A stretch of DNA of 64,000 bases. Origin: an uncultured bacterium (GTDB taxonomy: Bacteria; Babelota; Babeliae; Babelales; Babelaceae). The DNA lies in contig CAVRKK010000001.1 of assembly GCA_963722385.1 (NCBI GenBank), forward strand, positions 224,001 through 288,000, read 5' to 3'. The notes beneath the pieces were generated by a model. It was not told the DNA's origin. It ran no database searches and saw only the letters and a list, made by a program, of their open reading frames with translations. Each line of letters opens with the position of its first letter. Position 1 is the stretch's first letter. Positions 11,737 to 61,953 of the stretch are shown here, piece after piece. The position numbers and the translations under genes are program-made.

Positions 11737-14700
11737 TCAGCCAACCCACTCCTGAGCAGGTGCGATGATATTCTGCTCCTCAGTCTTCATAGCATCAATA
11801 AGACTGCTATACTGATCAACAATGCACTGGCTCGTTACGCCCTCAGCACAGACAGAAGCAAGGTAGGTATGGATAAAGCACGCTGAAATTGCCTGAAAAA
11901 TATAATCAGCCCACTCCTTGGTTGTTGAAAGCGCACCAGCTAGGGCCGCTTTTGCCCCAGCCAAATGGCCAACCTGCTCAGGCGTGATAGCGCCACCAAA
12001 GAGAAAGTCCCTAAGAATACTCCGCACCTTCTCAGCAGACAATGACCCCGTAATGAAAACCGTCGCTAAATCCTGAGCCTTCTTGGTTGCCGGATCAATC
12101 GGTAAACGCTTGGCAAGATAAGCTTGAACAACCGAATCCTGTTGAACTTTTGCTTGAGCATTTTGAGCACCTGTCGACAATGCGCCCATAGCACTCGCGC
12201 TCGGGTTCACAAGAACAACCCCGCCACGCTGCGCTTGCTCAGCTATAGTTGTATCAACCGACGTTAAATAAACAAGCGCATCCAAAATAGACTCTCTTAA
12301 TTTCTTACACTCATCTTTTTCATCTTCCCTAAAGCCAAAAACAATCGAGCAATCCGCCATCAGCTGATCGAATGACGAAACGCTGCCACCAGAGGATAAA
12401 ATAAGCGGTGTTGACCAACGCGACTTATACCAGCCTACAAAATACTCAATAGCACCGTAAAACAAAGCCTCCAATCCCTCAAGCCCCATCCTCGTAGCCT
12501 TCTGCTCATAGAGAGCAGCCTGCTCAGCATCAACCTGCTGATAATCAGAGCCTAACGACTGGTACAGACCCTGCGCAGTATTAAAATAAGATAATGAAGC
12601 AATATAGTGTTGTTTGCTGTAGTAAGCACGCGCAACATTCTCAAACATTTGCCCTCTCTTTGTTCGCACCGCAAGCCCGCTGACGTGCGCCTGCTGATAG
12701 GCACCTTCGGCAAAGACATACAACTTGGAAGCAAGAGTAAGATAGTTCTGGTATTGCACTGCCCTAGGATCTCCCATTAAAAACGAAGCTACAAAATCAG
12801 CATGCTGCTCATAACAAAAACCAAGTAATCCTTGTGCTTCAGGCAAACCTAGCCCCGTTAGAGCACTCGGCGAAGCAGCAGTAGCCACATACGTAGCAGC
12901 CAAAGCAAAATAATCTTGTACCCACGAAACAGCGCTCACCAGTTGCTTTGCCTGTGCATGGTCAAGATTGTCAATGTCAGGTACATGCTGAAAAAATGCA
13001 CGTTGTGCTACCAGCTGAGCCCGCTCTTGCTCATCAACGGTAATAAGCTTGAGCAGATCTTTAGAAACTACCCCACCACGCATATATGCTATTTTCTCAA
13101 AAAAAGCATACACTTGCGACAAATAAGCCTGCTGTATATTACGCTGCAAAGCATTTACCCGCTCCTGGGCGTACTTCTGCTGGCTCGAAGAAGCCGTCTT
13201 AAAGCTCTGGTACTGATTAAGCGCAAAAGCATAAGCCAGAACCGCCGTAGGATCTACCTGCTCACTTTTTTGCCCCATAGGCACAGGGAAAACGGGAATA
13301 TTACAGTAAACAAGCGCTGGCAACCGTCCCGCTGGCGCTAAAAAAGTCAGCGTTGTTTTAATCGCAAGACCATCTAATTTAGTCCCATGCGCCATCAGGT
13401 CGGCCAAATGCGTACGATAGCTCTGCGCAGCTTGGACATAAGGCACAAAGGCTGGATCGGCAACAGCTTCAGATCCTACGACGCTCGCCACATAGTCGTG
13501 GGTAAAGCTCCCTACAAGCCCCGCTGCCATGAGATGCTGATATAAGTATGCTGCAGCAGCTACGATACGTAAATCCTCCTCGAGCGACACTCTTAAGCTC
13601 GCGTCATTCTTGTTTTTACTATAAGCCGCATAGTCGCTAAAAAGAGCTGCTGGCGTCAAAGCGGGCTTTTGCGGCAATTGAACGAGCCATGGTGATAAGA
13701 AATATTGGCCGTACACGGGAAGGCCTCCGAGAAAAGAGCTAAACCTGGTGGTATTAGGCAGCCCAACCTTAGCGGCATCAGCTACCATATCAGCCAAGGC
13801 AAGCGCACCCTCTATCTGACTTAAAAGCGCCATCTCGTGACCAAGCTGCACATTGCCAATATTGTTATAAGCTGTACCGGCTTGCGCATAGGCGCCAGCC
13901 GCAATGCCACGATAGCCCGTAGACAAGGTACATTCAGCTGCTTGCAGCGGAACCTGCGCTGCTCCAACAAGAGCAGTAGCCCGCTCCACCGCCCAATCAC
14001 CTTGCTTTTGAGAAAGCTGGGCTAATTGCAGCATAAGCGACCCAAGTGGCAAAGCACGTATGTTAGAAAAAAGTGGCGAACTATATATAACATTCCCACT
14101 GCCCTGAGCTTTAACAAACAATGCCTTTAAATCAGGAACAGCCTGCATAAGCGCATCTTTTTGATCACTCAACGCTAATGAAACGCGAGCGACCAATGAA
14201 TCAGCTCGCTCTTGCCATAACTGCAAAGAACGTACGGCTTGCAAGACCTCAGCATAGCCCTGCTTGGGGTCGAGGTGCAATGCAGCAGCCTGACCCGCCA
14301 AAATTCTGGCCTGCTCAACAAATTTTTCCAGCCAATGTTGCATTTTTAATAAGAGCTCCGAAACATGCGGTACCGATACGCCGCCAACTGCATCTAGGAG
14401 ATAAAGACGATACTGCGCAACAACACGTAACCATGCATCAGCCTCGGGGCCCATAGCATATGACTGGACATAACCAAGCAGACAATCCCGATAAAGAGTA
14501 GGCCCATCTTTAAATAATACCGATTGCCCCCCTGCATGCCAAATCGTGTAGACAGCAAGTGTCGCACTCAGCGCGGATTCCCAAAGGGCAACCAATGATG
14601 CATTGACGTCAGACTTATTGCTTTTTGCTTGCTCATCAGCACTTTGAGCAGCAGCCAAGGCCTGACGAGCAGACTGCACAATCGCCGTAACGCGCCGTAA

Positions 14701-16647
14701 TGAGCGCATGATATCTTGACGCACATCAGCAGATAAATACTGCTGATAAGAAAAGGCCGCGAGGTAATAATCAGCAAGCAATACCTGGTGCGCATCTCCC
14801 GTACCAGCAGCCACAACAACCGAAGCAGCAAGCACCCGGTACCGATGGGCAAGAAAGCCACCAATAAACGTAGCAAACGAACTCGACGGCAAAAATGTAT
14901 AAAATGGTACAAAAACATGCACTCTTTTTGCACCAGCTATTCGAATCAAACTTTGATACGATGAGTCTGACGTAGCCAATAACGACAGAGCCGAGGCAGC
15001 GAGCTTCTGCACCTGAGCAACCACAAGAGCATTACGCTCCCCGCCCAAAAGCTTCATCGCCTGTGCTAAAAGTGAGCCAGCCGAACCGCAATTATCAAAG
15101 ATAGTTTTGCCTGTCATCAGCGTAAGCTGATTACCGATGTACTGCGTCTGCATACTGGTCAATAATGGCCCATTAGAGTACAGCGTACTTCCCGTCTGGG
15201 AAGCAATTTGGTACTGAACATTGGCCCGATCATACAAAGCCCCTGCCGCCCGGCAGGCATCTGCCAGCGAACCAAAAACATCCTGAAAGGTATCTTTGTT
15301 TTTGAGATCAGTCGTTTGGATAAAAGAGGCAGCTTGAGCAAAACGCTTCTGATAAGCCCCGACGAAATTTTTAAGCTTGGTACCAGCCTGAGCAAAATAT
15401 GAATCAGCCAGAAGTAAAGCACTTGCCTGCTGTATATGCTGAGCCAGCCAGGATGCACCACCTGCTTGTAACGGCGCGATAGCCTGCCCGAGAGCAGCAA
15501 CCTGAGCATCAAGGCCGCCACTGGCCAACGCAGCATCAAGAAGCTTAATCGCCTCGTCCAGACTCCGGTAAAATCCCTGAAAGCGAGCTTGAAGCGCCTC
15601 AAAGTCCCCACCAGTCATTCCCTTATAGGCATCAGCAGCCAGCTTAACATACGTGCACGCTTTTTCCAGAAAAAGCCGGTTATGCGACCGTGATCCTACC
15701 ATATCAGCAAGAGCAATAAGCAAATCTTCGGGCCTCATAGCAGCGAGCTGGTTCTGATAGGCATTATACGCTATCTGCGCCATTGACAGATGAAAGGACT
15801 GCAACGCTTGCTGAGCATTGGCAAAGCCAGAAATTACAAGATCTTCGCGCCAAGCACTCTGCGCCTGCTGAAAATAGAGCTGTGCCTGCGCCACAACCGA
15901 TGCTGACGCGGCGGATTGCGGACGCTCAGCTAGGTCGCTCAGTGCCAAAGTATAGGTTGCCACCAAGAGGCCCTTCGTTGATGAGCCATAGGGCTGATAC
16001 AGCGCATCCCAATTTTTTGCCACGTAAGGTTTTGCCCGTAGCACCGCAGTATCGTAGCGCTTTGCTTGCACCGATAGCTGATTCGCTAGACCCGTATAAT
16101 CTTTGCCAACAGATTTGAAATAAATTATGGTATTTTTTAACGCTTGAAGATTATGCAAAAACAAGGACATCGTACGCTTAATTACCGAAATGACATAATT
16201 GTTGCTTACCGTGCCATCAATGACAAAATGAGGAACTGAGCCATTCATCGTGATAGCAGGATCGGTATAAGCCTTGGCAAAAGCACTAATGGCGCTTTGA
16301 TAAGCACTAATAGCAGCTTGATCAATTGGTCGATACGTGATCTTAACCCCGCCAATTTGCGCAAACCCTTCACCCGTTAAGCGTATGGCTGAGTTATATG
16401 CTTTCTCCGCTTGCTGAAAATAACGACTCCGCCATAAAAAGATAATCGGTGAAACAACAGGCTTCACCTTAGACTTACCGCCAATGGTTGCACCACCAGC
16501 CCCATGTTGAATAGGTGCCTGTCCACCAATACCAGCAGGTTGCCGTGAGGCAATGCTGCCTCCCGGCGCTCCAATACTCGGGCCGATCATGGCGTGCACA
16601 TCGCCATAAATAACCAAACAAATAAGTGAAAAGTAGATATAACGCAT
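11737..16647 (-). CDS. Giant (1636 aa) exported Ala-rich alpha-helical protein
   Basis: Long uninterrupted ORF, AGGAG SD, signal peptide ending VHA-M, recurring TPR/SNAP-like A..Y..A...Y helices. Confidence 0.85.
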   Translation of the reverse strand: MRYIYFSLICLVIYGDVHAMIGPSIGAPGGSIASRQPAGIGGQAPIQHGAGGATIGGKSKVKPVVSPIIFLWRSRYFQQAEKAYNSAIRLTGEGFAQIGGVKITYRPIDQAAISAYQSAISAFAKAYTDPAITMNGSVPHFVIDGTVSNNYVISVIKRTMSLFLHNLQALKNTIIYFKSVGKDYTGLANQLSVQAKRYDTAVLRAKPYVAKNWDALYQPYGSSTKGLLVATYTLALSDLAERPQSAASASVVAQAQLYFQQAQSAWREDLVISGFANAQQALQSFHLSMAQIAYNAYQNQLAAMRPEDLLIALADMVGSRSHNRLFLEKACTYVKLAADAYKGMTGGDFEALQARFQGFYRSLDEAIKLLDAALASGGLDAQVAALGQAIAPLQAGGASWLAQHIQQASALLLADSYFAQAGTKLKNFVGAYQKRFAQAASFIQTTDLKNKDTFQDVFGSLADACRAAGALYDRANVQYQIASQTGSTLYSNGPLLTSMQTQYIGNQLTLMTGKTIFDNCGSAGSLLAQAMKLLGGERNALVVAQVQKLAASALSLLATSDSSYQSLIRIAGAKRVHVFVPFYTFLPSSSFATFIGGFLAHRYRVLAASVVVAAGTGDAHQVLLADYYLAAFSYQQYLSADVRQDIMRSLRRVTAIVQSARQALAAAQSADEQAKSNKSDVNASLVALWESALSATLAVYTIWHAGGQSVLFKDGPTLYRDCLLGYVQSYAMGPEADAWLRVVAQYRLYLLDAVGGVSVPHVSELLLKMQHWLEKFVEQARILAGQAAALHLDPKQGYAEVLQAVRSLQLWQERADSLVARVSLALSDQKDALMQAVPDLKALFVKAQGSGNVIYSSPLFSNIRALPLGSLMLQLAQLSQKQGDWAVERATALVGAAQVPLQAAECTLSTGYRGIAAGAYAQAGTAYNNIGNVQLGHEMALLSQIEGALALADMVADAAKVGLPNTTRFSSFLGGLPVYGQYFLSPWLVQLPQKPALTPAALFSDYAAYSKNKNDASLRVSLEEDLRIVAAAAYLYQHLMAAGLVGSFTHDYVASVVGSEAVADPAFVPYVQAAQSYRTHLADLMAHGTKLDGLAIKTTLTFLAPAGRLPALVYCNIPVFPVPMGQKSEQVDPTAVLAYAFALNQYQSFKTASSSQQKYAQERVNALQRNIQQAYLSQVYAFFEKIAYMRGGVVSKDLLKLITVDEQERAQLVAQRAFFQHVPDIDNLDHAQAKQLVSAVSWVQDYFALAATYVATAASPSALTGLGLPEAQGLLGFCYEQHADFVASFLMGDPRAVQYQNYLTLASKLYVFAEGAYQQAHVSGLAVRTKRGQMFENVARAYYSKQHYIASLSYFNTAQGLYQSLGSDYQQVDAEQAALYEQKATRMGLEGLEALFYGAIEYFVGWYKSRWSTPLILSSGGSVSSFDQLMADCSIVFGFREDEKDECKKLRESILDALVYLTSVDTTIAEQAQRGGVVLVNPSASAMGALSTGAQNAQAKVQQDSVVQAYLAKRLPIDPATKKAQDLATVFITGSLSAEKVRSILRDFLFGGAITPEQVGHLAGAKAALAGALSTTKEWADYIFQAISACFIHTYLASVCAEGVTSQCIVDQYSSLIDAMKTEEQNIIAPAQEWVG

Positions 16648-16769: not shown

Positions 16770-17942
16770 TTACAGAATTCTAAAATTTGAGACTAATTTT
16801 ATAGCGTTTTCGAGGACTAGCCTTGCAGCACCATCAGAATGGCGTCGTAGCATAGCGTCATGCAAAAGCTGCCTAATTTTGAGACGCCCCTCACCAGCAG
16901 TGTAGCCTATCTGCTCACGCGTCTGTTGCCATGGAACATGCGGAAGCGAACTAAATACGGTCATCAGATCAAGATTAAGCGAATTGCGGTGATCATAGTC
17001 AATCAAGTACTCTGCTATTTCAACATTACCTCCAGCAGCGGCCTCATGCAAAGCCTTTTCCAAGGCCGATTTAACGCCTTTTCTCGAAGCATCCAACTTT
17101 TCAAGCAGAACTTTGAAATAATCTATCTTGCCCAACTGAGCAGAAAGAATAACGAGCTGTTGTAAAAATCCTTGAGTACATTCCATCATACCCATAAGTT
17201 CAGCAAGCAAATCGGCTTGAACAACTTCATTATCATTAAGAAGCTCTAAAACACCACCTGCTAGCTGTTCTTCGCTCGTCGGTTCTTTATCTTCAGCAAG
17301 AAGTCTTTTAGCAATACGTATGGTATTGGGGCTATTTGACAATAATAGCTCTAAGTGCAACCCGGCATCGGACACCGTCAAAACTTCAGGATGAGCTAAT
17401 TCTCTTATGACCTGGTCAAGCACCTGATAAAATTGAGGCTCACTTGGATCTAATGCAATCAACGTGAAGAAAGCGCTTGCGTCTGCAATACTTAACATAT
17501 TGCGCTCAGAAAGACGTATGCCCGGTCCTCTATGAACCAATCTCTTAAACATCTCTTTATGGCCCCAACGAGCAACCAGAATAACTAATCTCTGCCAAAA
17601 TCCCTCCGACAACTTCACTTTGCTCAACATCGTCTCGAGCAAATCAACCTGACCATTCTCAACAGCGCCAATAATCGCGAGGGATAGCTCCCGTTTACGC
17701 GAATACCCTGTGTCTGCTTCTTCGGCAGCCCGCATTAACGCCCGTTCCAAGCGAGGATCCCGGAGTGTTAGTTCAAAGGCACCGCCCGCATCGGCTATCG
17801 TAAGCACGTCCTCACTTCGAGTTTCAACGCTACGAGTTTCAACGCCTTGGCTTCTCTCTTCCTGAGGCGCCTCCATAGCCATCATGCCAGCGCCACCAAG
17901 CGCTATCAAGGAAAGGCTAACTGCTTGCAATAATTTTGACAT
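16770..17942 (-). CDS. Exported ankyrin-repeat-like protein
   Basis: Signal peptide ending MMA-ME; ALHEAAAGGNVEIAEYLID and AIIGAVENGQVDLL ankyrin-like motifs. Confidence 0.8.
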   Translation of the reverse strand: MSKLLQAVSLSLIALGGAGMMAMEAPQEERSQGVETRSVETRSEDVLTIADAGGAFELTLRDPRLERALMRAAEEADTGYSRKRELSLAIIGAVENGQVDLLETMLSKVKLSEGFWQRLVILVARWGHKEMFKRLVHRGPGIRLSERNMLSIADASAFFTLIALDPSEPQFYQVLDQVIRELAHPEVLTVSDAGLHLELLLSNSPNTIRIAKRLLAEDKEPTSEEQLAGGVLELLNDNEVVQADLLAELMGMMECTQGFLQQLVILSAQLGKIDYFKVLLEKLDASRKGVKSALEKALHEAAAGGNVEIAEYLIDYDHRNSLNLDLMTVFSSLPHVPWQQTREQIGYTAGEGRLKIRQLLHDAMLRRHSDGAARLVLENAIKLVSNFRIL

Positions 17943-18766: not shown

Positions 18767-19798
18767 TTAAGATAAACCGCTTTCTGAAACAATGATCTGC
18801 ATAACGAACAAAAATAAAACAGCAAAGAGAACCGCCGAGTTTATATTTTTTTCTATCTCAGACTTGATACGCTCCGCATAATGCCTAGCGAGTTGCCTCG
18901 TATCAGCGGTCAGATTGCTGATTGTTTTTTTGCATAGGGTAAGTAAAAGAGAATAAGAACCATAATGCCAAGCAATGCTATATGCCTTCTCAAAAGCCAC
19001 AAGGTGACTTAGATTATCACCAGGAACGTGCTCATGGAGTGAAATAAATGCTTCAGTATTGCTGCGTAACGCACTTACCCATAAAGCGCTCGATATTGTT
19101 ATGGGCGACAAATACTTGCCAGCTTGCTCAAAAATGAGCTCGATTATTGAGACACGATTATAAGCAGCTGCTATAACCAAAAAGTCATCAAGCGTAATTG
19201 CCGGCCGAGGAAACTCGTGCTCTTTCACGCGCTCTTCGGCATGGAGCAAACCATGCAAAAAATTATACATCAACTCATCATAATCCGTTCCCTCAATAAT
19301 CGCATAGATAAGCGAATTTTCACCAAAAATAGCCTTAATTTTTCTTCTTAGCGTCACATCAAGAGGAACACCAACCCTGAGCAATGCGCGAACTGCCAGG
19401 CCATTTGAGTCATCAAGTGCTCTGGCCATAAGCAAAGGGCCCCAAAACACGATATCAATTTCTTTTTGATATACCAACCATTCGAAAGATTTATGGTCCC
19501 ACCATCTAGAATCTTTAAAATAGACGCCCAGAAACTGCGCCGATAAACGCACATCCCTATCGTACAGCACTTCAAGCGCATCTCTATTATCTACCAGACA
19601 TGCAATATCAAGAAGCGTCAAGCCCGTATGATTTCTAAACTTATAACGCCGATCCAAATCGATAGAACTCTTCTTTAACTGCTCAGTAGCTGCTGGCAAA
19701 CGAGAAGTAATAAGTTCCAACAACATGCCGCCAGGATTCTTCATAGCCAAAGCATGTTCGCAAATTAATAGCAGCAATACAAATAAAGCAATACGCAT
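18767..19798 (-). CDS. Exported ankyrin-repeat-like protein
   Basis: Signal peptide ending ALA-MK; GLTLLDIACLVDNRDALEVL and IAAAYNRVSIIELI ankyrin-like motifs. Confidence 0.75.
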   Translation of the reverse strand: MRIALFVLLLLICEHALAMKNPGGMLLELITSRLPAATEQLKKSSIDLDRRYKFRNHTGLTLLDIACLVDNRDALEVLYDRDVRLSAQFLGVYFKDSRWWDHKSFEWLVYQKEIDIVFWGPLLMARALDDSNGLAVRALLRVGVPLDVTLRRKIKAIFGENSLIYAIIEGTDYDELMYNFLHGLLHAEERVKEHEFPRPAITLDDFLVIAAAYNRVSIIELIFEQAGKYLSPITISSALWVSALRSNTEAFISLHEHVPGDNLSHLVAFEKAYSIAWHYGSYSLLLTLCKKTISNLTADTRQLARHYAERIKSEIEKNINSAVLFAVLFLFVMQIIVSESGLS

Positions 19799-35166: not shown

Positions 35167-35949
35167 TTAAGACTGGGTGCTTTTATTGCCGCTTAAGTAT
35201 TCCAAAACACGAGAAGCATATAAGAGCTCTTCTGATGTTTCAGCAATGTTTCCCTCAGTAACATCAAGCTTGCGGTGAATTTCTTGTCGCGCTTGCTCTT
35301 CCTTATGCAAAGTCTCAATTTCATCGAGCGAAACAAGTTTATATCCTTCTTCATAAGCCATATCAGCTTCACCTTGATACAAAAGCTTGGCCAGGTTCGT
35401 AAAGCTGTCTTTGCTTGCGGAGTAACACGGGGCACCACGGATGTGCCAATTATTTCGAGCAATATCAAAATAGAAGAGCTGAATGCGGATGTTGCCATAG
35501 TTCCCATGGAAATATTTTTTGAACACAAACGCTATAAAGGGCGCACCTTCAGCGTCATAGCTTAAGAAATAAGGCTTGCCCGCGGCCAAAAAATCATCTA
35601 ATGTTATACTGGTAACGAGAGCGGACGGTTTCTCGAGGAGGATTCGTCGGGTAAGATCAAAAGTAAGCAATGGCACTGCCTCACGCCACGGCATGCCAAA
35701 AGCATTTACTATGGCACGGGTAAAAGCAGAAAAAAGCTCCTGATGTTGCTGATTTGCTAAAATATTTTTAAAGACTAATAAGGCTTGATCGACTTGCTGT
35801 TGCTCAATTAGAGCATTATCTCTAATTTGGGCTACCTCGGATATATCAAAGCCCTGTCCCATAAATGGTGCTGACTCTTCCATACCAAGTAGAGAACTAA
35901 CAAAGCCAACAACTATCAATAGGTGATAATAACGCACACGATGAATCAT
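35167..35949 (-). CDS. Exported orphan protein
   Basis: GAGGT SD, signal peptide ending LLG-MEE. Confidence 0.75.
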   Translation of the reverse strand: MIHRVRYYHLLIVVGFVSSLLGMEESAPFMGQGFDISEVAQIRDNALIEQQQVDQALLVFKNILANQQHQELFSAFTRAIVNAFGMPWREAVPLLTFDLTRRILLEKPSALVTSITLDDFLAAGKPYFLSYDAEGAPFIAFVFKKYFHGNYGNIRIQLFYFDIARNNWHIRGAPCYSASKDSFTNLAKLLYQGEADMAYEEGYKLVSLDEIETLHKEEQARQEIHRKLDVTEGNIAETSEELLYASRVLEYLSGNKSTQS

Positions 35950-38924: not shown

Positions 38925-39356
38925 ATGATCCCTATTCTTTCTTTTTGCCTTTTAATCTTACCCGGGGCCTCCCTGGCGGCAGCCTCGAGTCCAACATTTT
39001 TTATAGAAGATGAGCGGTATATTGCTCATCTTGAGCAGGGGTACCTGAGCCAACAATTACGCGAGTCGATATTGCATAGAGACCACCAGGCGCTCCTCCA
39101 GGCAATCAACGATGGCGCCTCTGTCAACTCAATATACCAATGGGATTCGTGTCGTGGCACTCCGCTTCATTTGCTTGCCTACAGCTTTGGCGGTGTCTTG
39201 GGTCTGGCTCAACTTCTTATCGATCATGATGCGCCTATCAATGCTCTCGATCACGAAGGACTAACCCCCCTCGATAGAGCAATATTTTGCAATAACAGCG
39301 AACTGAAAGACTTTTTGGCACAGCGTGGCGCGATATCAGCCTTATTACCCCAATAA
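38925..39356 (+). CDS. Small exported ankyrin-repeat protein
   Basis: Signal peptide; GTPLHLLA, DHEGLTPLDRAI ankyrin motifs. Confidence 0.88.
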   Translation: MIPILSFCLLILPGASLAAASSPTFFIEDERYIAHLEQGYLSQQLRESILHRDHQALLQAINDGASVNSIYQWDSCRGTPLHLLAYSFGGVLGLAQLLIDHDAPINALDHEGLTPLDRAIFCNNSELKDFLAQRGAISALLPQ

Positions 39357-39409: not shown

Positions 39410-41068
39410 ATGAAAAGTACTCTTTTCGGATGCTTGTGCTTATGGCTTAGCGTCAATACGTTTGTTACTGGTATGAAAGCTGACGAGAAAGAAAAAGAGA
39501 AAGAATACGAAACTCCTCCAAGCAATAGTTCTCAGCATGAACTTGATGAAGGCGAGAAAAAAACAAAATCTGAGTGGAGAGCCGAAGCACAAACTGAGCT
39601 TTTTGATGCTATGACAGAAAGTATTATCAATCGAGTTTGGCAGGGAATTCGTGTAGGTGCCGCAGATGAATTACTTGATTCAGAACTCGTAGGCGCAGCT
39701 GTTGATCTCGAAAAAGCACGTTGAGCCTTGGAAAATGGCGCTGATCCCAATTCGTGGAGAGGTCTCCACTTCGGACTATTTGACCAGGATGAAGAAGAAA
39801 TCTATGAAGAGGAATTTCGAGGGGAATTATCAGGACCTCTCTTACTCGCTTCCCAAATAGGGAACATTGAACTGGCCAAATTGCTTATCGAGTATGGCGC
39901 TCATATTGATTTACCTGATGTCCGCAACATAACACCGTTAGGAAACGCTATAGATAATGGTTATTATCAGTTGGCACGCGCCTTGCTTGAGCATGGTGCA
40001 GCTATTTCTTTCGAACATATATGTGCAGAATTAGCAAAAGGGGAGGACTATAAGGGTAATCCTGCTCCAACAAGCCTAGATTTTGTTAAATTACTTATTG
40101 CGTATGGCTTTAACCTTCATAATCACATTCGACCTCTATCTGCATATTTAGAAGCAATGTTGAGGTCACTTAATGAGACCATCCAGCAACTTGAGAATCC
40201 CCAGGAACTAGAAAAAAGTAGAGCATTATCGCAAACATCAAATCAATTAGGTGATGTACCCGGCTTAAGGCACATGGGCTACTTATCTTGGTTGCTCGAG
40301 AATGCCGAAGATCCTCAATTCATAGCAAACTATAAGGCGAAACAAGCACAGATATCAGACCTAGCTTGGGAGCTTGTTTCCTATGGCGCTTTTAATAGCG
40401 ATGAGCTCTTACCTACTTTACGCACGCTCGTAGCTGAGCTCAACGTACCTGAACTTCTGCAGGCTATCCTTTTTGATACCGATAAAGCTCTAGAACGCCT
40501 CAAAGAATTCACTTTCTATAATCCTGATACTGATCAATCTCACAAAATTTCCCTTGTTAATGCAAGCCTCGCCTTAGCAGCCGCATATGGAAACTTACAG
40601 ATCATAGCATTTATTGTTGAAAATCTAAGGTCATTTCTTACTGATGATGCCACCGATAAAGCATTCGCCCGCACAGCTTTTGCAGGGCAACTTCGTGTAT
40701 TGCATATTTTAAGGCTGTTAATATCTGATGATCGCCTTTTAACTCTCATCACTGAAAACTTACAAATAATAGCTGCCCAACAGCGCGAAGACGTTGTTAT
40801 ATATCTTATGACGCTTGCCGAAGAGCTTCCTACCTATCCAAGGATTGATATTCTACCAGTAAGTAATTTTCTGAGCATCCTACTTCGTAATCAAAAATTA
40901 CCAGACAAAACTAAGAACAATTACCTCCGGATTCAAAATTTTCTATGGAGTTACCTGCTTAATCATATTGCAACAAGCACCACACCGAGCCATTTGGGCC
41001 AATTGCCACCCGAGCTCCACTTCCACCTTGCAAAATTCATAAGCCCAGGTAAATTCAATGCAAAATAG
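39410..41068 (+). pseudogene. Ankyrin/F-box-like paralogue 1 with internal nonsense codon
   Basis: In-frame TGA at 39722-39724 where paralogue 3 has CGA (GCACGT-TGA-GCCTTG vs GCACGT-CGA-GCCTTG); otherwise colinear with 42861-44528. Confidence 0.9.
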
Positions 41069-41101: not shown

Positions 41102-42826
41102 ATGAAAAAAAATGCACTTATAGGATTCATCAGCTTATGGCTCAGTGCTCATACTTTTGTTATGGGTATGGAGGATGGAAAAAGATCTGCGCCTGAGAGA
41201 GAAAAAAAGAAAGAGTACGAAACTCCTCCAAGCAAAAGATCCCGGCATGAAGTTGAAGAAGCTGAAGAAAAAAATAAACCTGCATGGAGCGCTGAAGCCC
41301 AAACCGAGCTTTTTAATGCAATATCAGGAAGCAATATCCATCAGGCTCGGTGGGCGCTTATTGGCTCAATGGACGTGACGCAGCAACTTGGAGATCTTGC
41401 ACGGGTAAGTATTGATCTCCAAAAAGCACGTAACGCTTTAGAAAATGGCGCTGATCCCAATTCATGGCACGACCTACATTTTGGCCTTCTTGATCCAGGC
41501 GAAGTAGAAGATCTTGGTACAGCTCTATCGAGCCCTTTATTATTCTCCACTCACATAGGAAATGCAGAATTGGTTGAGCTCCTTATCGAATTTGGTGCCG
41601 ATGTTAATGCAACATTGGCCGGAGATTTGCTGCCTTTAGAAAACGCTCTACATCTTGGTTATTATGCTGTAGCTCAAACCTTGCTTGCGCATGGCGCATC
41701 TATCGTGCCACAAGTGCTTGAGTCGTCAATAAGAGGGAATCTTAAGGATGAATATCAAGCCTTAGACTTTACTAAGTTACTTCTCGCCTACGGTCTTAAT
41801 CTTCACGACTTTACTGCAATACGTTGCCTATCGAAGTTCCTGACGAAGGAGATAAGGAGCCTTCGTAAGCATGTCAAGCAACTCGAAGACCCTGAGGAAA
41901 TAAAAAAGAATAAAGCTGAGTTGGCAAGGATTGAAACTCAATTATCAAAAGAAACACTTTCGGCAGATGGAAGATGTGTTATACGCACTCGCCCAGGGAT
42001 GACTGAATACTCAAGCATCCTTCCACAGGACCGCAGCATTCTTTCTTATCAAATTAAGCTAGCCGAAGATCCTCAATATATCGCAAACCAAAAAACTAAA
42101 CTCTCAAAATTATTGGAGCTCGCGCGGTGGCTTATTTCCTCTGGTGCATATAACGGCGATACGTTCCTGCCTCCTTTACGCATATTATTAGCCGAACTCA
42201 ACATGCCTGCGCTTCTTCAAGATATTCTTTTTGATACCGACAAAGCTCTAGAAAGCCTCAAAGAATTCACTTTCTATAATCCTGATATTTATCAACCTCA
42301 CGACATTTCCCTTGTTAATGCAAGCCTCGCCTTAGCAGCGGCATATGGAAACTTACGCATCGTAGAGTTTATTGTTGAAAAAATAAAATCATTTCTTACT
42401 GATGATGTCATCAATAACGCATTCGCCCGCGCCGCATTTGCAGGGCAACTTGCTGTATTGCACATTTTGAGACCGTTAATATCCGACGATCGCCTATTAA
42501 ATCTCATCCACGAAAGCCTTCCAATAGCATCTATACAACAGCACAAAGACGTTGTTATATATCTTATTACGCTTACTAAAGAGCTTCCTAACAATCCAAA
42601 GATTGATTTTGTGTCAATAAGTAACTTTTTGAGCATCTTACTGCGCAATAAAAATTTATCACAAGAAACCAAAAATAATTACCTTTGGATTCAAAACTTT
42701 CTGTGGAGTTCTCTGCTTAACGGTATTGGCACAAGCACCACACCGAGCCATTTGGGCCAATTGCCGCCCGAGCTCCACTTCCACCTCGCAAAATTCATAA
42801 GCGCAGGTAAATTCAGCGCAAAATAG
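41102..42826 (+). CDS. Exported ankyrin-repeat protein with C-terminal F-box-like motif (paralogue 2)
   Basis: Signal peptide ending VMG-MED, SPLLFSTHIGNAELVELLIEFGADVN, tail LGQLPPELHFHLAKFI. Confidence 0.88.
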   Translation: MKKNALIGFISLWLSAHTFVMGMEDGKRSAPEREKKKEYETPPSKRSRHEVEEAEEKNKPAWSAEAQTELFNAISGSNIHQARWALIGSMDVTQQLGDLARVSIDLQKARNALENGADPNSWHDLHFGLLDPGEVEDLGTALSSPLLFSTHIGNAELVELLIEFGADVNATLAGDLLPLENALHLGYYAVAQTLLAHGASIVPQVLESSIRGNLKDEYQALDFTKLLLAYGLNLHDFTAIRCLSKFLTKEIRSLRKHVKQLEDPEEIKKNKAELARIETQLSKETLSADGRCVIRTRPGMTEYSSILPQDRSILSYQIKLAEDPQYIANQKTKLSKLLELARWLISSGAYNGDTFLPPLRILLAELNMPALLQDILFDTDKALESLKEFTFYNPDIYQPHDISLVNASLALAAAYGNLRIVEFIVEKIKSFLTDDVINNAFARAAFAGQLAVLHILRPLISDDRLLNLIHESLPIASIQQHKDVVIYLITLTKELPNNPKIDFVSISNFLSILLRNKNLSQETKNNYLWIQNFLWSSLLNGIGTSTTPSHLGQLPPELHFHLAKFISAGKFSAK

Positions 42827-42860
42827 GTAAATGCTTTATAGCTTTTGAATTAAGGACTTT

Positions 42861-44528
42861 ATGAAAAAAAATGCACTTATAGGACTCATCTGCTTATGGC
42901 TCAGTGCTCATACCTTGGTTATAGGTATGGAGGACGGAAAAAGGTCTGAACCTGAGAGAGAAAAAGAAAAAGAGTATGAAACTCCTCCAAGCAATAGTTC
43001 TCAGCATGAACTTGATGCAGGCGAGAAAAAAACAAAATCTGAGTGGAGCGCCGAAGCACAAACTGAGCTTTTTGATGCTATGACAGAAAGTATTATCAAT
43101 CGAGTTTGGCAGGGAATTCATGTACATATGGTGGACGAACTACTTGATGCAGAACTCGCAGGCACAGCTGTTGATCTCGAAAAAGCACGTCGAGCCTTGG
43201 AAAATGGCGCTGATCCCAATTCGTGGAGAGGCCTCCACTTCGGACTGTTTGACCAGGATGAAGAAGAAATCTACGAAGAGGAATTTCGAGGGGAATTATC
43301 AAGACCTCTCTTGCTCGCTTCACAAATAGGGAACATTGAACTGGCCAAATTGCTTATCGAGTATGGCGCTCATATTGATTTACCTGATGTCCGCGACGTA
43401 ACACCATTAGAAAACGCTATATATAATGGTTATTATCAATTGGCGCGCATCTTCCTTGAGCATGGTGCAGCTATTTCTTTCGAACATATATGTGTAGAAT
43501 TAGCAAAAGGGAACTATAAGAGTAACCCTCCCCCAACAAGCTTAGATTTTTTTAAATTACTTATTGCATATGGCTTTAGCCTTCACGATCACATTCGGCC
43601 TCTATCTCCGTATTTACTAGCAACGTTGAGGTCGCTTAACGAAGCCATCCAGCAACTTGAGAATCCCCAAGAACTAAAAAAAAATAGGGCATTGGCGCAA
43701 AAGTCAGGCCAATTAGCTGATATGTCCCAATTAACGCGAATAGCCCATTTAGCTTGGTTGTTCGATAATGCTGAAGATCCTCAATTCATAGCAAACTATA
43801 AGATGCGACAAGCACAGCTATCAGACCTGGCTTGGGAGCTTGTTTCCTGTGGGGCTTTTAATAGCGATGAGCTTTTACCTATTTTACGCACGCTCGTAGC
43901 GAAGCTCAACATGCCTGAACTTCTGCAGGCTATCCTTTTTGATACCGATAAAGCTCTAGAAAGCCTCAAAAAATTCACTAATCCTGATACTGATCAACCT
44001 CACGACATTTCCCTTGTTAATGCTGGCCTCACCTTAGCATCCGCATATGGAAACTTACAGATCATAGCATTTATTGTTGAAAATCTAAGGTCATTTCTTA
44101 CTGACGATATCATCGATAAAGCATTCGCTCGCGCAGCATTGTCAGGGCAGCTTCCTGCATTGCATATTTTAAGGCTGTTAATATCTGATGATCGCCTTTT
44201 AACTCTCATCACTGAAAACTTACAAATAATAGCTGCACAACAGCGCGAAGACGTTGTTATATATCTTATGACGCTTGCCGAAGAGCTTCCTACCAATCCA
44301 AGGATTGATATTCTACCAATAAGTAATTTTCTGAGCATCCTACTTCGTAATCAAAAATTACCTGACAAAACTAAGAACAATTACCTCCGGATTCAAAATT
44401 TTCTATGGAGTTACCTGCTTAACCGTATTGCAAACGGCCATACACCGAATCATTTGAGCCAATTACCACCCGAGCTCCATTTTCACCTTGCAAAATTCAT
44501 AGGCTCAGGTAAATTCAGCAAAAAGTAG
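42861..44528 (+). CDS. Exported ankyrin-repeat protein with C-terminal F-box-like motif (paralogue 3)
   Basis: Signal peptide ending VIG-MED, PLLLASQIGNIELAKLLIEYGA, tail LSQLPPELHFHLAKFI. Confidence 0.88.
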   Translation: MKKNALIGLICLWLSAHTLVIGMEDGKRSEPEREKEKEYETPPSNSSQHELDAGEKKTKSEWSAEAQTELFDAMTESIINRVWQGIHVHMVDELLDAELAGTAVDLEKARRALENGADPNSWRGLHFGLFDQDEEEIYEEEFRGELSRPLLLASQIGNIELAKLLIEYGAHIDLPDVRDVTPLENAIYNGYYQLARIFLEHGAAISFEHICVELAKGNYKSNPPPTSLDFFKLLIAYGFSLHDHIRPLSPYLLATLRSLNEAIQQLENPQELKKNRALAQKSGQLADMSQLTRIAHLAWLFDNAEDPQFIANYKMRQAQLSDLAWELVSCGAFNSDELLPILRTLVAKLNMPELLQAILFDTDKALESLKKFTNPDTDQPHDISLVNAGLTLASAYGNLQIIAFIVENLRSFLTDDIIDKAFARAALSGQLPALHILRLLISDDRLLTLITENLQIIAAQQREDVVIYLMTLAEELPTNPRIDILPISNFLSILLRNQKLPDKTKNNYLRIQNFLWSYLLNRIANGHTPNHLSQLPPELHFHLAKFIGSGKFSKK

Positions 44529-44811
44529 GCCAAGAGCTTTCTTTTTAAGAGTAGTCACGTTGCTATCACCATAGCGCACGATCCAACTGCCCTGCAAGCC
44601 ATGTGGATAAATGAACGCTCAAGGGAAACTCAGCTCAAAAACTTGGGTCGCTCACTAAGGGAGCAGGCCCGAGTCTGCTCCCTTATCATCAAGCAAATGA
44701 TGCAGGTACTGCTCTGGATTATCTACAAAAGATTTGGTGATGAGATGAGGATCATTTTCATGTGCCATTGCCTCAAAATGCCCTGTTGTAGGGCACGTTT
44801 TTCCTCGAGAA

Positions 44812-44839
44812 GGCTCGTATAAGAGCTCTTATGTTAAGA
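44812..44839 (+). other. dif-like XerC/XerD site candidate
   Basis: GGCTCGTATAA-GAGCTC-TTATGTTAAGA: 11-6-11 layout, 8/11 and 9/11 identity to E. coli dif arms. Confidence 0.4.
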
Positions 44840-45584
44840 TTTGGGTGTATAGGGAAGCCATAGTGCTATATCTCCAAGAATAGCGTCATATGTCTGCCCT
44901 AAACTACGTGTTTGATTATTCAAAGTGCTCAAGAGTGTTAGCTTCTGTTTCAGAAATTTTTTGAAGAGTAAGTTCCTTGCTTCTGTTTTTTGCTCAAGCT
45001 TTCGTGCTGCCTGGTATTGTTTCTCAAGGCTTTGCAGATCCCTGGCATAAAGACTTCTTGCTCTTGCGAGCTTAGTCCGATATGCGGTTTCAAGCTCCTG
45101 TTTGGTAAAGGTAGATTTAGTCAGGCCTAAAACTGAAGGATCATAGCTAACACCAAATGCCCCATATAGGATTCCTGATAAGAACCTTAGTCAAGATCTA
45201 CCTATTCCCTGAACCGGAACATATTCAGCCCCATTTTTTGATTCACTCAGATTCTGTTTAACGCTGTTTAAAGTAGCCCGTGCATTATTTGCGAGAACCT
45301 TAGCATTAGACTCACTATGGTCTCTCCGCTTGGCGCTGTTACGATAGGAATATTTTCTGCTGCTGTGGATGATGAAGGTTCTGTAACCGGTGGAGAAGTA
45401 TCTTTTTCAGTCGAGGGAGATGTCTCAGGTGAAGTAGCAGGTGGTTGTATATCTGGTTGCTTCGGCCTTTGCCATAGAGGCTCCCCAATTATTCTGGTAA
45501 TTGCTTTTTGCTGGGTTCATTCATAGCTCCTAAGCTACATACAAAAAAACTAATTATTGCTAACAAAATTTTACCATAATACAT
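44834..45584 (-). pseudogene. Degraded exported protein gene with J-domain-like fragment
   Basis: GAGGT SD, MYYGKILLAIISFFVCSLGA-MNEP then stop; Pro/Ser/Thr linker in another frame; VLGLTKSTFTKQELETAYRTKLAR fragment; 3' limit uncertain. Confidence 0.6.
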
Positions 45585-49050: not shown

Positions 49051-49497
49051 CTATATTCGCTCATTGAGCTCGGCAGTAACCTCCGCTTCTATCTTCCCAT
49101 GATCGGTGGTAAAAAGCGCATGTAGAGATCCCGTATAAAACTCTTGGGGTGATTTCCAGCAACCCCCCGATTTCGTACGTATAAGCAGCTGCCCATTACT
49201 ATACGCGACATAGCATTCCTTCAGAATTGTTATCGTTTGCTCAATGTCACGCATGGTAAATATATCCCCCTTAACACTCAGCTTGACGGGCAATTGTGTA
49301 CCTGCAGGACAGGCGACAATAAATCGCTCTTTTTGTGAGAAAAATCCCTCTATTTGTTCTTTGGTTAAATTATCCCATTGGATAATAGGCAAAGAAGCAA
49401 GGTCGTCAGCAACCGCACAAACAGGTGCGTGATTCATGCTTGCCTGATGAGCAGCAAAGAGAGAAAGCGCAATGGCAAAAACTCGCATACTATACAT
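49051..49497 (-). CDS. Exported protein of unknown function, probable BlaI-regulated gene
   Basis: AAGGAG SD, signal peptide, operator palindrome directly upstream. Confidence 0.75.
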   Translation of the reverse strand: MYSMRVFAIALSLFAAHQASMNHAPVCAVADDLASLPIIQWDNLTKEQIEGFFSQKERFIVACPAGTQLPVKLSVKGDIFTMRDIEQTITILKECYVAYSNGQLLIRTKSGGCWKSPQEFYTGSLHALFTTDHGKIEAEVTAELNERI

Positions 49498-51162: not shown

Positions 51163-52155
51163 TTATCTTAATATAAGTTTGAATTGCTTTAAAATATCGT
51201 TGGTTTCGTCGTGAAAACTAGGTGTACGATGGCCCAAAGTTCCGTGAATAAGTATCCAAACATAACGAATTTTAGAAAGATCAATTTTTTTTGGTTTGAT
51301 AGTATCTAGACAGCCAATCCATAAGCAGCGTATTCCCTCATTATTTTTAGGTTCGCAATCTTTGAGAATTTTATTCGGGCAGTTATGCCAGCGCCACTCT
51401 CTTTTTTTCCCCACTGGCATGCCAGCTCCACCTGCTACTTTAATTGGCAATTGGTCAGGTTGGCGTGACGGTGAAGCAGAAGGACCTGTCTTATTTACTG
51501 TTGATGAACTTGAATCCCGTTTTTGATCTGGTTGTTTACTAGTATTAGGCTTTGGTTGAAAGTTTAGTTCAGCAGCAGACATAAATTCTATTACAGGTTC
51601 TGCATCTGTTTCACCCTCATACTCAAAAACATAATATTCTATCTCTTCCGATTCTTCAGTTTGTTTATCCTCATTATTTTGGGCTCCCTCTTGAAAAGCA
51701 GCTTGAGAGGCAGATAGACGAGCCAAATAATATTTTGATGCTTCTTTTAAATCTATACAAGGTATAGATTCGTTACCAAAGGATTGCTTAAAGTATCTTC
51801 TTGCTTGCTGCCAATCAACAAAAATGATTACTTGATTATTAGTTAATGATGCTAATAAATCGCTTGCTTCAATTATAGATATGCCAAGATGATGTTTTAT
51901 AACTTGTGCTCCGCGCGACTTTGTTTTTTCATTAGTTGGAAGAGCGCTATAGAAACTAAGAAGCACCTCAAGCACACTATTCTTATTACGCAAAAAATCC
52001 TGTCGATTAGTTTTTACCAAAAATCTTTCAAAATTTAGTAAAGATATTTGCTTAATTTGATTTTTTCGAGGATCTTCCATAGTGTGAACATGGAAGCACG
52101 GAACAATAGTTAATAGAAACGCTATTAGCCAAAATCTATTTACTGTTTTATACAT
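51163..52155 (-). CDS. Exported protein, probably 3'-truncated alpha/beta-hydrolase-like
   Basis: Signal peptide ending VHT-MED, acidic/Pro-rich linker, ends shortly after WILIHGT with no GxSxG. Confidence 0.55.
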   Translation of the reverse strand: MYKTVNRFWLIAFLLTIVPCFHVHTMEDPRKNQIKQISLLNFERFLVKTNRQDFLRNKNSVLEVLLSFYSALPTNEKTKSRGAQVIKHHLGISIIEASDLLASLTNNQVIIFVDWQQARRYFKQSFGNESIPCIDLKEASKYYLARLSASQAAFQEGAQNNEDKQTEESEEIEYYVFEYEGETDAEPVIEFMSAAELNFQPKPNTSKQPDQKRDSSSSTVNKTGPSASPSRQPDQLPIKVAGGAGMPVGKKREWRWHNCPNKILKDCEPKNNEGIRCLWIGCLDTIKPKKIDLSKIRYVWILIHGTLGHRTPSFHDETNDILKQFKLILR

Positions 52156-54214: not shown

Positions 54215-54517
54215 AAAAGAGGCACAGCTCTAGATTAACGTATATTCCTTGCCAGTATCCCCCACAACAGGATCGCAAAGATAAGGAATAACAGAGGAAT
54301 ACCGCTGTAACTTCTTGTATCAAATTTCTTACAACGAACAACATCTACGCTGCCGAGAAAACCTGTTAGAATACCATTGCATGTAGCTAAAAGACCTAAA
54401 CGCTTAATCATATTTTTATTGCTTGTCAATGTAATGGTTTGGGACAAACATACCTATCATGCTTATTTAGTAGGACATGATTCAGATAGTGCTTTCTTGC
54501 CGGCAAACCGAAAGCTG

Positions 54518-55155
54518 GCGGCACATAAAAAAACAAGAGGGTACTCCTGCTTGTAAGAAAGTACTTGCAAGCAGGAGTAATGAAGAATGGCGTGTGTGTA
54601 AGGACAGAAAAAGGGACACCACAAGGAGGCCCACTATCACCGTTATTAGCAAACATCATGCTAGACGATATCGACAAGGAACTAGAAAAGAGAGGGCACA
54701 AGTTCTGCAGATATGCAGACGACTGCAACATCTATGTGAACAGTATTGCAGCTGGAGAACGGGTGATGGAGTCGGTAACAACATTCCTAGAAAAGAAGCT
54801 GCGCCTTAAAGCAAACAAGGCAAAGAGCGCGGTGGCTCCCCGTAGTGAACCGAACTTTCTTGGGATGCCGGCTAACCAACTATGGGCTAACTATAGCGTT
54901 CGAAAGCGTAATGCGAATCAAAAACACCATAAGGATGATAATAAGAAGAAATAGAGGCTGCAGCCTGGAACAAGTCAGGGAAGGTTGGGTACGATATTTA
55001 AGTTAGCTCGATGCAAAACATATTGCAGGAACTTGACCAATGGATAAGGCGCAAACTAAGGCGGATAAGAATCAAACAGCTGAAGAGAAGATACACCATA
55101 GCAAAAACACTAATCAGCATGGGGGTAAAAGAATACCAGGCGTGGATACTTACCG
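54518..55155 (+). pseudogene. Group II intron reverse transcriptase/maturase remnant (class C-like)
   Basis: KRVLLLVRKYLQAG, GTPQGGPLSPLLANIML, RYADD, FLG, then frameshifted RRNRGCSLEQV..GWVRY and QELDQWIRRKLR maturase segments; N-terminal RT half missing. Confidence 0.9.
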
Positions 55156-55412
55156 AAAATTGGAAACCGATAATTTTAAACGGGATATAATATAAATTGG
55201 AAGTGATCAAAAATAAGCACAAAATAATGAAGATAGAGGCTCACAAGTTTTACCTTGCGTCTTTAATTAACTGGTTATTTAGACCTACTAACCAAAGCAA
55301 GCTTCAAACTACTCCTCTATCTCTAGTTAATAGATTATCATAAAAATTTCAGTTTGTCAAGTTGAAATTATTGCCTCGAGTTTACTTCCCGGTCAGCCAA
55401 AAAAAAACTAGC

Positions 55413-57340: not shown

Positions 57341-57498
57341 ACTCGCCCTTAATCCAAACTTTAACAGTTATATATTCTAGCAAAGGAAGCCTACCGCCGT
57401 AAATAATTTTGAACAACGAATTCTCACCACCATAACTCTTGCCTACCTTACGCGCGCTCATTTAGATTGGTATAGATGTATTCAACGAAAGCGCTACC

Positions 57499-58703: not shown

Positions 58704-58714
58704 AGTTCCACCTG

Positions 58715-60355: not shown

Positions 60356-60606
60356 AATTCTCCAGAGATAAATTAGGCACAACTAGCAAAAACGTACCAA
60401 TTTATTTTAAGCATGTCTACGAAATAATAGGTGAAAAAGTACACCTGCGCATGCATCTTTAAAGAGCCGCATCAAAATCACGATGAAAGCGCTAAAATGG
60501 AGTAAGGCAGCTTAATGTTTTTGGGCAAATAATTTAACTAATTATTCAAACGTCATTTTTAAATTGGCCTAATAACTCTAGCAAGCATGAAGCTTCTATA
60601 AGTGTT

Positions 60607-61953
60607 TTATGATTTAGCTCCTGCTTCTCGTAAAGGCTGGAGGAGCATTGCCATGATTATGGCAAATAGTTCTGGGAAAAGGCGTTGCAACTGAGCAGTA
60701 ATTTGGCTGGCATCAAGACCGAGCACGTTGGGGCTTAGTAGGCGTTCAGCACCTATAGAGTATATGTCGTTAACTAATACTTGTAATTCCTCTTGTTCTT
60801 CAATGGCTTTCAACCGCGCAACAGATTCTTCAGCTGATCTGGGTTGTTGATTGATGATATGCTCTAGAGCGCTTAAGCGACGATTGAGGGAATGCGTGAG
60901 GGCGGTAAGGTTGACCGCTATATTTTCATCAAGAGCAGTACTGAGGAGCCAACGCACTTGGTTGTAGCGACGTTGAGCGAGTGCGTAAGCAAGAGCCCTG
61001 TCGAAAATGCCAGTCCTATCAAAATCTATGTTCTGAGAAACGTCTTTCACAGCATCATACACATTTTGCATCGCTTTGATATTGCCTACAAGGGCAGCTC
61101 GAGCGAAGCCAGCAGGAAGGTTAACTATATGAGTAAAATTACCGAGTATAAAATTGAAAACATTATAATTGCGCTGAGCAATAGCAAGGAAAAATGCTTG
61201 CCGAAGAAGTTGCTTATCTTCCTCACTGAGCTTATGATGGTGAGCTTTTTGTAGTAATTCCTCTAAGAGCCGTAAAGCCTCTTTATTTCTCCTCGCTGTT
61301 ATATAGGAAAGCAGCAATTTTTCATCTGTATAAGCTCTCATTGCAAGAATCAGGCGGGAGCTCGCGGTAGGGGTGAATCCATGTTCAAATAGCCATCGCA
61401 ATACCTCTAAGGGATACGTACCTACTTTTAGATAAGGAAGGTTGAGTTGAGCACCAAGCATCATAAATTGGGCAAGCTCAAGAGGTTGAATTGCGAGTCC
61501 TAAATTAGATTTAATAAAGACAAAAATGGCTGTGTCGCCTAAGTGAAAAGGATGGTTTATTGTAGAAGGGGAAGGGGCATTAATATCAGCACCATAATCT
61601 ACCAACAGTTCGATAAGTTCTAAAGCGTCAGGCATGGTTGCCGCTAAAATAATTGCCGGAAAACTTCCTGTTTCATGAGGTAAGGCACCATGAGCATTAG
61701 CCCGAGCGCCCTTTGCGAGAGCTTCTTTAGTAGTTTCTATGTCATTGGCTAAAATAGCGCTGATCAGCATATGGTCAAGCCTTTGCTGTTCTTCAGACCT
61801 TTCTTCAGAAATTATTACCCAAGAAGCCGGAGAGGCTTTAGGCTCGCCAGGGGCCTCTCCGGAAGGTTGATTATTCTGCTTCTCCATGGTATTGATGCCA
61901 GCGCTTGAGAATATTCCAAAGATAATTAATATAAAAATAGTATAAGTCTTCAT
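60607..61953 (-). CDS. Exported ankyrin-repeat protein with C-terminal F-box-like motif
   Basis: Signal peptide ending INT-MEK, ALAKGARAN, LIELLVDYGADIN, tail LQRLFPELFAIIMAML. Confidence 0.85.
   Translation of the reverse strand: MKTYTIFILIIFGIFSSAGINTMEKQNNQPSGEAPGEPKASPASWVIISEERSEEQQRLDHMLISAILANDIETTKEALAKGARANAHGALPHETGSFPAIILAATMPDALELIELLVDYGADINAPSPSTINHPFHLGDTAIFVFIKSNLGLAIQPLELAQFMMLGAQLNLPYLKVGTYPLEVLRWLFEHGFTPTASSRLILAMRAYTDEKLLLSYITARRNKEALRLLEELLQKAHHHKLSEEDKQLLRQAFFLAIAQRNYNVFNFILGNFTHIVNLPAGFARAALVGNIKAMQNVYDAVKDVSQNIDFDRTGIFDRALAYALAQRRYNQVRWLLSTALDENIAVNLTALTHSLNRRLSALEHIINQQPRSAEESVARLKAIEEQEELQVLVNDIYSIGAERLLSPNVLGLDASQITAQLQRLFPELFAIIMAMLLQPLREAGAKS

Follow-up and report, generated by a model that had tools for sequence, protein, structure and literature searches.

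The window studied here is a 64,000-nucleotide stretch of DNA (G000:C1:224001-288000) from the 1.6 Mb genome of a Dependentiae (Babeliales) bacterium, hereafter G000, and it encodes exported proteins in which the signal peptide is followed directly by a methionine (Met), at position +1 of the predicted mature protein. The signal peptidase I of G000 matches 62 close loci at 44-70% identity, and wherever their label is informative it reads Candidatus Dependentiae, Babeliales or TM6. The genome contains 160 ankyrin matches, ATP/ADP translocase matches and two GspD-like secretins, traits consistent with those of the intracellular protist parasites described in the available text of PMC4378268, PMC4776705 and PMC6561590. 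An initial annotation of the window had listed 11 such N-termini, and all 11 were found in place and reading as quoted.

Signal peptides followed by Met in the window

Several of the junctions precede ankyrin proteins. The signal peptides at 17874..17942 (-) and 61885..61953 (-), both followed by Met-Glu, belong to ankyrin proteins of 390 and 448 amino acids (aa), respectively, and three ankyrin paralogues stand in tandem, as annotated: the first begins with a signal peptide and Met-Lys at 39410..39475 (+) and is split by a stop codon in frame at 39722-39724, its second part lying at 39728-41068, and the second (41102..41170 (+), 574 aa) and third (42861..42929 (+), 555 aa) both continue with Met-Glu. 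All of these score above the Pfam ankyrin cut-off, the interrupted paralogue in its second part, and a 343-aa protein with Met-Lys after its signal peptide (19742..19798 (-)) has weak ankyrin matches below that cut-off. The orphans comprise proteins of 260 aa (35881..35949 (-), Met-Glu), 148 aa (49435..49497 (-), Met-Asn, no match in the five relatives searched), 330 aa (52078..52155 (-), Met-Glu) and 1636 aa (16588..16647 (-), HA|MI); Pfam gave no family for any of these four, and NCBIfam no specific family for the window proteins. The signal peptide and Met-Asn at 45522..45584 (-) belong to a gene remnant, a 31-codon open reading frame (ORF) ending in a stop, in agreement with its description as a pseudogene.

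The orthologue of the 35949 protein in another genome (G001) retains Met-Glu although its signal peptide is dissimilar. The 1636-aa orphan (11737-16647), which is Ala-rich, has orthologues in two of the five relatives searched (37% and 28% identity) with Arg or Gln at +1, and its Met is probably incidental. The exported ankyrin protein at 38925..39356 (+) is a counter-example, with no Met at the junction. The exported enzymes of the window had been said to lack the Met, and they do (DOT1-like at 10815, HAD at 30354, phosphoglucomutase ending at 33254, DUF2608 at 56447), as does the putative beta-barrel protein at 58715, for which Pfam gave no match; elsewhere in G000, however, several exported enzymes carry it.

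Met at +1 in the exported proteins of G000

From the 1,395 genes identified in G000 with our own gene caller, 411 soluble signal-peptide-like proteins were analysed with a crude (-3,-1) cleavage score that is blind to the +1 residue; the set includes some false positives and membrane anchors, so that any signal is diluted and not created. Met occupies +1 in 49 of the 411, mostly within a junction of the form [LAV]-x-[AGS]|M-E-x-P, against 2-10 at each of the positions +2 to +12, which is above the background of 1.6% (p=3e-27) and above all of 200 shuffles of the segment following the hydrophobic core (mean 9.3, maximum 21). After dereplication the count is 38/375. An independent anchor, Met preceding the first Asp or Glu after the hydrophobic core, is found in 65 of 401 proteins and, with the shuffles, rules out a predictor artefact. 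As for the cut falling just before the Met, the (-3,-1) pattern immediately ahead of the residue is the classical one of signal peptidase I, but in the window the predictor was exact in only 5 of the 10 intact items and cut 1-5 residues earlier in the remainder.

A relaxed search, which was not conditioned on the -1 residue, found M-[EDQN] behind 118 leaders, a number that includes some false cases. Their lengths are mostly 20-25 residues; A, G, S, T, P or C stands at -1 in 111 leaders and L, A, V, S, T or I at -3 in 95, and 87 have Glu at +2 and 54 have Pro at +4. Glu stands at +2 in 74 of the 411 exported proteins; among the 49 with Met at +1 it does so in 39, and Glu, Asp, Asn or Gln in 42. 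Family redundancy was judged by clustering N-termini at 40% identity, which divided the 118 leaders into 95 clusters and excludes a single paralogue family. Pro at -1, uncommon for signal peptidase I sites, precedes Met in 7 of the 118 leaders and in 4 of 90 in a second genome (G005).

The anatomy of the leaders, with a basic n-region, a hydrophobic core, a small residue at -1 and an aliphatic or small one at -3, and the single full-length LepB of G000 point to export through Sec followed by cleavage by LepB. A second, dedicated signal peptidase was considered and rejected, the only candidate beside LepB being a short S26 fragment. This S26 peptidase-like ORF (G000:C1:295566-295892, locus L002) has no membrane anchor and lies near mobile-element-like genes.

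Proteins that carry the Met

The motif is found in 45 of the 62 exported ankyrin proteins of G000 and in 24 of the 349 other exported proteins (32/49 and 21/326 after dereplication). A C-terminal F-box-like L-P-x-E-L tail, located at 42750..42826 (+) (approximate bounds) in the 574-aa Met-tagged ankyrin protein, occurs in 12 of 111 Met-class proteins and in none of 343 exported non-Met proteins (p=3e-8, for a motif that was chosen after inspecting window proteins and found by pattern, with no Pfam match), all 12 tailed exported proteins thus being Met-class; within ankyrin proteins alone the contrast is 12/69 versus 0/17 (p=0.11). The tail likewise ends the ORFs at 41068 and 44528, and ankyrin proteins ending in it lie at 41102-44528, 39728-41068 and 60607-63019 of the window. 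Neither cysteine parity nor CaaX endings distinguished Met from non-Met proteins.

A domain scan covered 31 proteins, of which about 22 were Met-class and had been missed by the ankyrin profile. It matched two Ulp1/RickCE proteases, both with Met, together with NUDIX, GNAT, LHH nuclease and nucleotidyltransferase domains and, weakly, a HipA-like kinase and two ankyrins; about half of the scanned proteins had no family. A sample of 95 exported proteins that are neither Met-tagged nor ankyrin, taken within 400 kb, contained solute-binding proteins, OmpA, M23, amidase, TamB and GspC, as well as catalase, sulfatase, glycosyltransferases and a single WD40-like propeller; F-box and ubiquitin-protease domains were absent from these 95.

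Spread across Babeliales and beyond

Met stands at +1 in 29 of 138 exported proteins in 20 ankyrin-centred stretches of relatives, in 40 of 312 around lepB in 62 close Dependentiae loci (those matched by the G000 LepB at 44-70% identity) and in 0 of 22 in 16 distant-match loci. In the 800 of 1,118 kb of G005 that were covered, the count at +1 is 68/259, and the motif occurs in 50 of 63 ankyrin proteins against 40 of 196 others. Conserved exported families have it in 12 of 161 cases and lineage-restricted proteins in 40 of 151. F-box loci from 20 genomes, read by eye, have Met in 16 of 30 cases, lack it in 12 and are unclear in two, and among WD40-like proteins 17 of 25 carry it, but from only four of nine genomes. 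In the supplementary alignment of PMC4378268, as far as it is available, all seven full-length Ulp1-AAA proteins of Babela have Ser or Ala and then Met. Peptidase_C48, searched over 121 genomes, gave two weak matches outside G000, both with stops inside. Glu, Asp, Asn or Gln follows the Met in 48 of 69 relatives' proteins (55 of 78 in the dereplicated set of relatives).

Among 120 ankyrin matches, a Met junction was seen only in the close relatives of the query or in proteins labelled Dependentiae (6), and the remaining 24 signal-peptide-like matches showed no clear one. A profile of the leader plus F-box, itself Met-biased (11 of 16 rows), returned 15 signal-peptide-like matches beyond the queries, six of them with Met, one of which, P0161, is an F-box protein labelled Alphaproteobacteria with the same junction. 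No relatives of P0161 were found, and spread outside the Dependentiae rests on this one protein, whose junction hints at a pressure from the host side; Holosporales may share the motif. ESM Atlas yielded nothing usable for P0161 or for the N-terminus of 61953. As judged from these distributions, the +1 Met signature is real, order-wide and present on most effector-like Sec substrates of Babeliales.

A possible role for the exposed Met

Tentatively, and with slightly less than even confidence, we read the Met as the selected mature N-terminus of proteins delivered to the host, likely retained for compatibility with the host N-terminal quality control; the cut, the delivery and the stabilising role are what we infer. 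Babeliales would use Sec for the proteins that they direct at the host, their ordinary signal peptidase I (the single full-length LepB) would cleave after [LIAV]-x-[AGSCTP], and selection would have fixed Met, usually as Met-Glu, Met-Gln, Met-Asp or Met-Asn, as the new first residue of most of them. The second step, over the outer membrane, would probably use a type II system with the two GspD-like secretins, which is presumed because type II is the only secretion system that the available text of PMC4378268 reports for Babela. In G000, two GspD-like secretins of ~1000 aa flank PilM/PilN-like genes at G000:C2:774048-783251 (locus L055), with a GspC-like gene upstream. The protein would then arrive in the protist cell with an N-terminus resembling a native cytosolic one. 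By the N-degron, methionine aminopeptidase and NatB rules, host methionine aminopeptidase would leave such a Met in place, the Arg/N-degron pathway would be blind to it and acetylation by NatB-type enzymes would be possible. An effector delivered by a type III or IV system retains its initiator Met; a Sec-processed one would have to rebuild it.

Action on the host side is favoured because of the bias at +2, because unrelated host-directed domains carry the tag and because of the alphaproteobacterial P0161. The bias avoids bulky hydrophobic residues, which would create a Met-hydrophobic degron, and small ones, which would allow trimming by methionine aminopeptidase. Mimicry of NatB substrates, which had been suggested at the outset, agrees with the Glu, Asp, Asn or Gln at +2 in G000 and in its relatives, but less so with G005.

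Several observations weigh against a host-side role. The +2 residue in G005 is Glu, Asp, Asn or Gln in only 52 of 90 cases, Ser, Lys and Arg being common and M-R, M-K, M-S and M-G all occurring, and three of the seven Babela Ulp1-AAA proteins start with M-R (PMC4378268, available supplement). The proposed marking of ankyrin and orphan cargo holds as a strong tendency but is not obligate, 17 of the 62 exported ankyrin proteins being without the motif. Ankyrin proteins without Met are not enriched in other classically stabilising residues (16/49 versus 258/751, with noisy cut sites), so that generic N-end-rule stability fails to explain Met specifically. The three C19 deubiquitinases of Babela lack the Met, the clearest of them being secreted with Gln at +1. 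In 5-6 of 30 genomes the periplasmic chaperone Skp does carry it, the next residue being Ala or Thr and never Glu, Asp, Gln or Asn, and four of the five clear cases belong to one genus. The alphaproteobacterial case is a single protein that came from a Met-biased profile.

The junction Met might instead be an alternative or true start codon giving a cytoplasmic isoform, or the relic start of a captured gene, as its in-frame ATG and a 3-4 nt match resembling a Shine-Dalgarno (SD) sequence at two of the 11 window junctions would allow. An SD match of at least 4 nt, however, is found ahead of 79% of first ATGs but of only 5% of those at the junction (n=118; control 7.7% of 339); in the window the first ATGs have SD matches of 4-7 nt each, and nine of the 11 junction ATGs have none. 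At x-Glu junctions the codon x is ATG in 76 cases, GTG in one and TTG in none, although 187 of the 1,395 called starts (13%) are GTG or TTG. The upstream segment is moreover a well-formed signal peptide with the (-3,-1) pattern, and the Glu-dominated +2 spectrum (39/49) is unlike that of native starts, which is led by Lys, Ala and Ser. The start-codon reading is thereby largely refuted and we find it barely credible, in line with the original view that this Met is not the real start; because SD matches are rare at the junction and GTG or TTG almost never replaces ATG, the Met is, on codon-level evidence, selected as an amino acid. The motif could also be inherited, effectors having been recombined behind an old leader ending in Met-Glu, with a LepB that cuts well before Met, and serving no later purpose. 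Paralogous expansions (clusters of eight and six; WD40 arrays) are in keeping with this, and it would account for the low resident background, Met being somewhat raised in conserved exported families (8/161) and in Skp. Against it stand the 95 clusters among 118 N-termini, the persistence of a single-codon residue while the signal peptide turns over, as in the 35949 orthologue, and the recurrence of Met on ankyrin, F-box, WD40, Ulp1, NUDIX, GNAT and nuclease domains; a peptidase preference should also affect all substrates alike, which leaves the contrast between classes unexplained. We regard inheritance as improbable.

Other alternatives suppose that the Met is read or modified on the way out. 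A type II receptor in the periplasm, in one of the two secretin systems, or a reader at the vacuole membrane might recognise the free N-terminal Met or Met-Glu and so separate host-bound from resident proteins. Such sorting would agree with Met being far stricter than the +2 residue, would better explain why other stabilising residues, such as Ala and Ser, do not substitute for it, and would suit both the confinement of the junction to close relatives and Dependentiae-labelled proteins among the ankyrin matches and the two GspD-like secretins with their PilM/PilN-like and GspC-like neighbours in an order whose Babela has type II as its sole reported system. Host-acting C19 proteins without Met and resident Skp with Met argue against it, and type II systems recognise their substrates by folded shape and are not known to read a linear tag. 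Type II genes, including two gspD copies, are described as core in all TM6 genomes in the available text of PMC4776705, so that no co-occurrence contrast can be drawn. We consider sorting unlikely, and hold as doubtful too its broader form, in which the exposed Met would be a "deliver to host" address in Dependentiae and, convergently, in some intracellular alphaproteobacteria, read by type II or by a periplasmic N-acetyltransferase. A coupled enzyme is the last possibility, in which a membrane-anchored GNAT resembling RimI, Ard1 and Naa30 would acetylate the new Met terminus before export. The candidate gene (G000:C2:794916-795497; L335:1501-2082) adjoins a truA-like gene; its paralogue at C1:122916 has a signal that is cleavable. 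Of 121 Babeliales genomes, 83 encode this GNAT, with clean presence or absence at family level. The N-terminal anchor of the protein is conserved and positively charged on the N-side, and one orthologue has a lipobox, so that the protein probably faces the periplasm; its best sequence matches are Naa30, Ard1 and RimI, and the best folds for its structure model (predicted local distance difference test score, 89) are RimI (9mto, Z 19.6, root mean square deviation (rmsd) 1.8, 135 aligned) and Ard1 (4pv6, Z 19.3, rmsd 2.5, 143 aligned). Non-N-acetyltransferase GNATs nevertheless tie in Z (18.8), the Tyr-Tyr of the beta6-beta7 loop, a motif of N-acetyltransferases, is not evident in the alignment, and other kinds of exported GNATs are common in the phylum. 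Neither protein nor profile search gave a strong match in eight families (f3, f6, f7, f11, f14, f16, f18 and f20), Met at +1 is as frequent there as elsewhere (12/75 versus 45/274, in a comparison resting on 287 kb), and no Acatn-family acetyl-CoA carrier was found in G000, whose genome is 93% complete. The analogous Plasmodium candidate failed on testing, according to the available text of PMC10038149. The distribution does not support this GNAT as an obligate partner of the motif, and we hold the coupled-enzyme reading to be very improbable.

Other features of the window

Broken or truncated effector-like genes lie at 39410-41068, 44500-45584, 62099-63019 and in the 51163-51030 region; they include the in-frame stop in the first tandem paralogue, the 31-codon remnant at 45584 and a leaderless paralogue of 61953. 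Short ORFs at 54477-55195 look like a piece of a group II intron reverse transcriptase, with the P-Q-G-G and Y-A-D-D motifs of such enzymes. Signal peptides are also present on many normally cytoplasmic enzymes, in the window at 10815-11504 (DOT1-like methyltransferase), 30354-31208 (HAD hydrolase) and 33254-34732 (phosphoglucomutase), and elsewhere in G000 on glucose-6-phosphate dehydrogenase, GDP-mannose dehydratase, nucleotidyltransferases, sulfotransferases and glycosyltransferases, which suggests either that the periplasm is supplied with cofactors or that these enzymes act within the host.

Significance and comparison with known systems

Genetic tools are lacking for the Dependentiae, widespread parasites of protists that export hundreds of orphan proteins, and the +1 Met offers a sequence handle on those that are likely host-directed, with about 110 candidates in G000, some 40 of them non-ankyrin and many without a known domain. 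It also raises the question of how effectors cut by signal peptidase I, which lose their initiator Met, survive the N-terminal quality control of the host. We know of no linear substrate signal for type II secretion; if the Met were read during export it would be one, and if the address reading were true, effectors that use Sec plus type II would have a linear sorting signal, the equivalent in bacteria of the mature N-terminus of PEXEL proteins.

The rule is apparently undescribed, no account of it having been found in a literature in which subscription journals and supplements were thinly covered; the word "methionine" is absent from the main texts, as available, of PMC4378268, PMC6561590, PMC4776705, PMC5837995 and a Holosporaceae preprint. 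The residue itself is visible in the published Babela Ulp1-AAA alignment (PMC4378268, available part). The same classes of protein as here (ankyrin proteins with Sec signals, F-box and Ulp1 proteins) are found in Babela and Chromulinavorax, where the available texts give signal peptides on 79 of 126 ankyrin proteins of Babela massiliensis (PMC4378268) and on 78% of those of Chromulinavorax destructans (PMC6561590), assumed to be secreted into the host. The L-P-x-E-L tail on ankyrin repeats recalls a further group. Poxvirus-type PRANC proteins combine ankyrin repeats with a C-terminal F-box; the proteins described here differ in having a cleavable Sec signal and the Met tag, and their short tail was found by pattern.

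The Met rule belongs to none of the three closest systems, namely the Bacteroidetes Q-rule, Plasmodium PEXEL and the Phe(+1) of complex plastids, although it resembles each of them. In mature PEXEL proteins, position 2 is Glu, Gln or Asp, close to what follows the Met here. In Plasmodium the cleavage-exposed and N-acetylated terminus, and not the signal, tells exported from resident proteins (PMC10653839 and PMC10038149, available text); here the split between Met-tagged and resident proteins is statistically strong, with exceptions both ways (Skp, C19). PEXEL, however, belongs to a eukaryotic parasite with plasmepsin V and PTEX, whereas the junction here is a bacterial Sec/LepB site with an invariant Met, and the (-3,-1) site of the 118 leaders is an ordinary one, without an Arg conserved ahead of it or an RxL-type motif. 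The Q-rule, in which Gln at +1 after signal peptidase I cleavage is cyclised by glutaminyl cyclase, is likewise a phylum-specific +1 residue on Sec/signal peptidase I substrates that is thought to be stabilising (PMC5837995 and PMC10653852, as available). It places Gln on most signal peptidase I substrates, whereas the residue here is Met on an effector-like subset. Gln at +1 is also raised in G000 (44/411, versus 49/411 for Met), including several non-Met ankyrin proteins, but it is not on most substrates; no plant-type glutaminyl cyclase (PF05096) was found in G000, the animal type not having been searched, and no enzyme coupled to the Met was identified, the candidate N-acetyltransferase not co-distributing with it. 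The Phe(+1) of complex plastids is, in the available text of bioRxiv 10.64898/2026.03.27.714854, also a single residue exposed by signal peptidase that acts as a second-step sorting code; there it serves import from host to organelle in algae and is followed by a transit peptide, whereas here the direction would be from bacterium to host.

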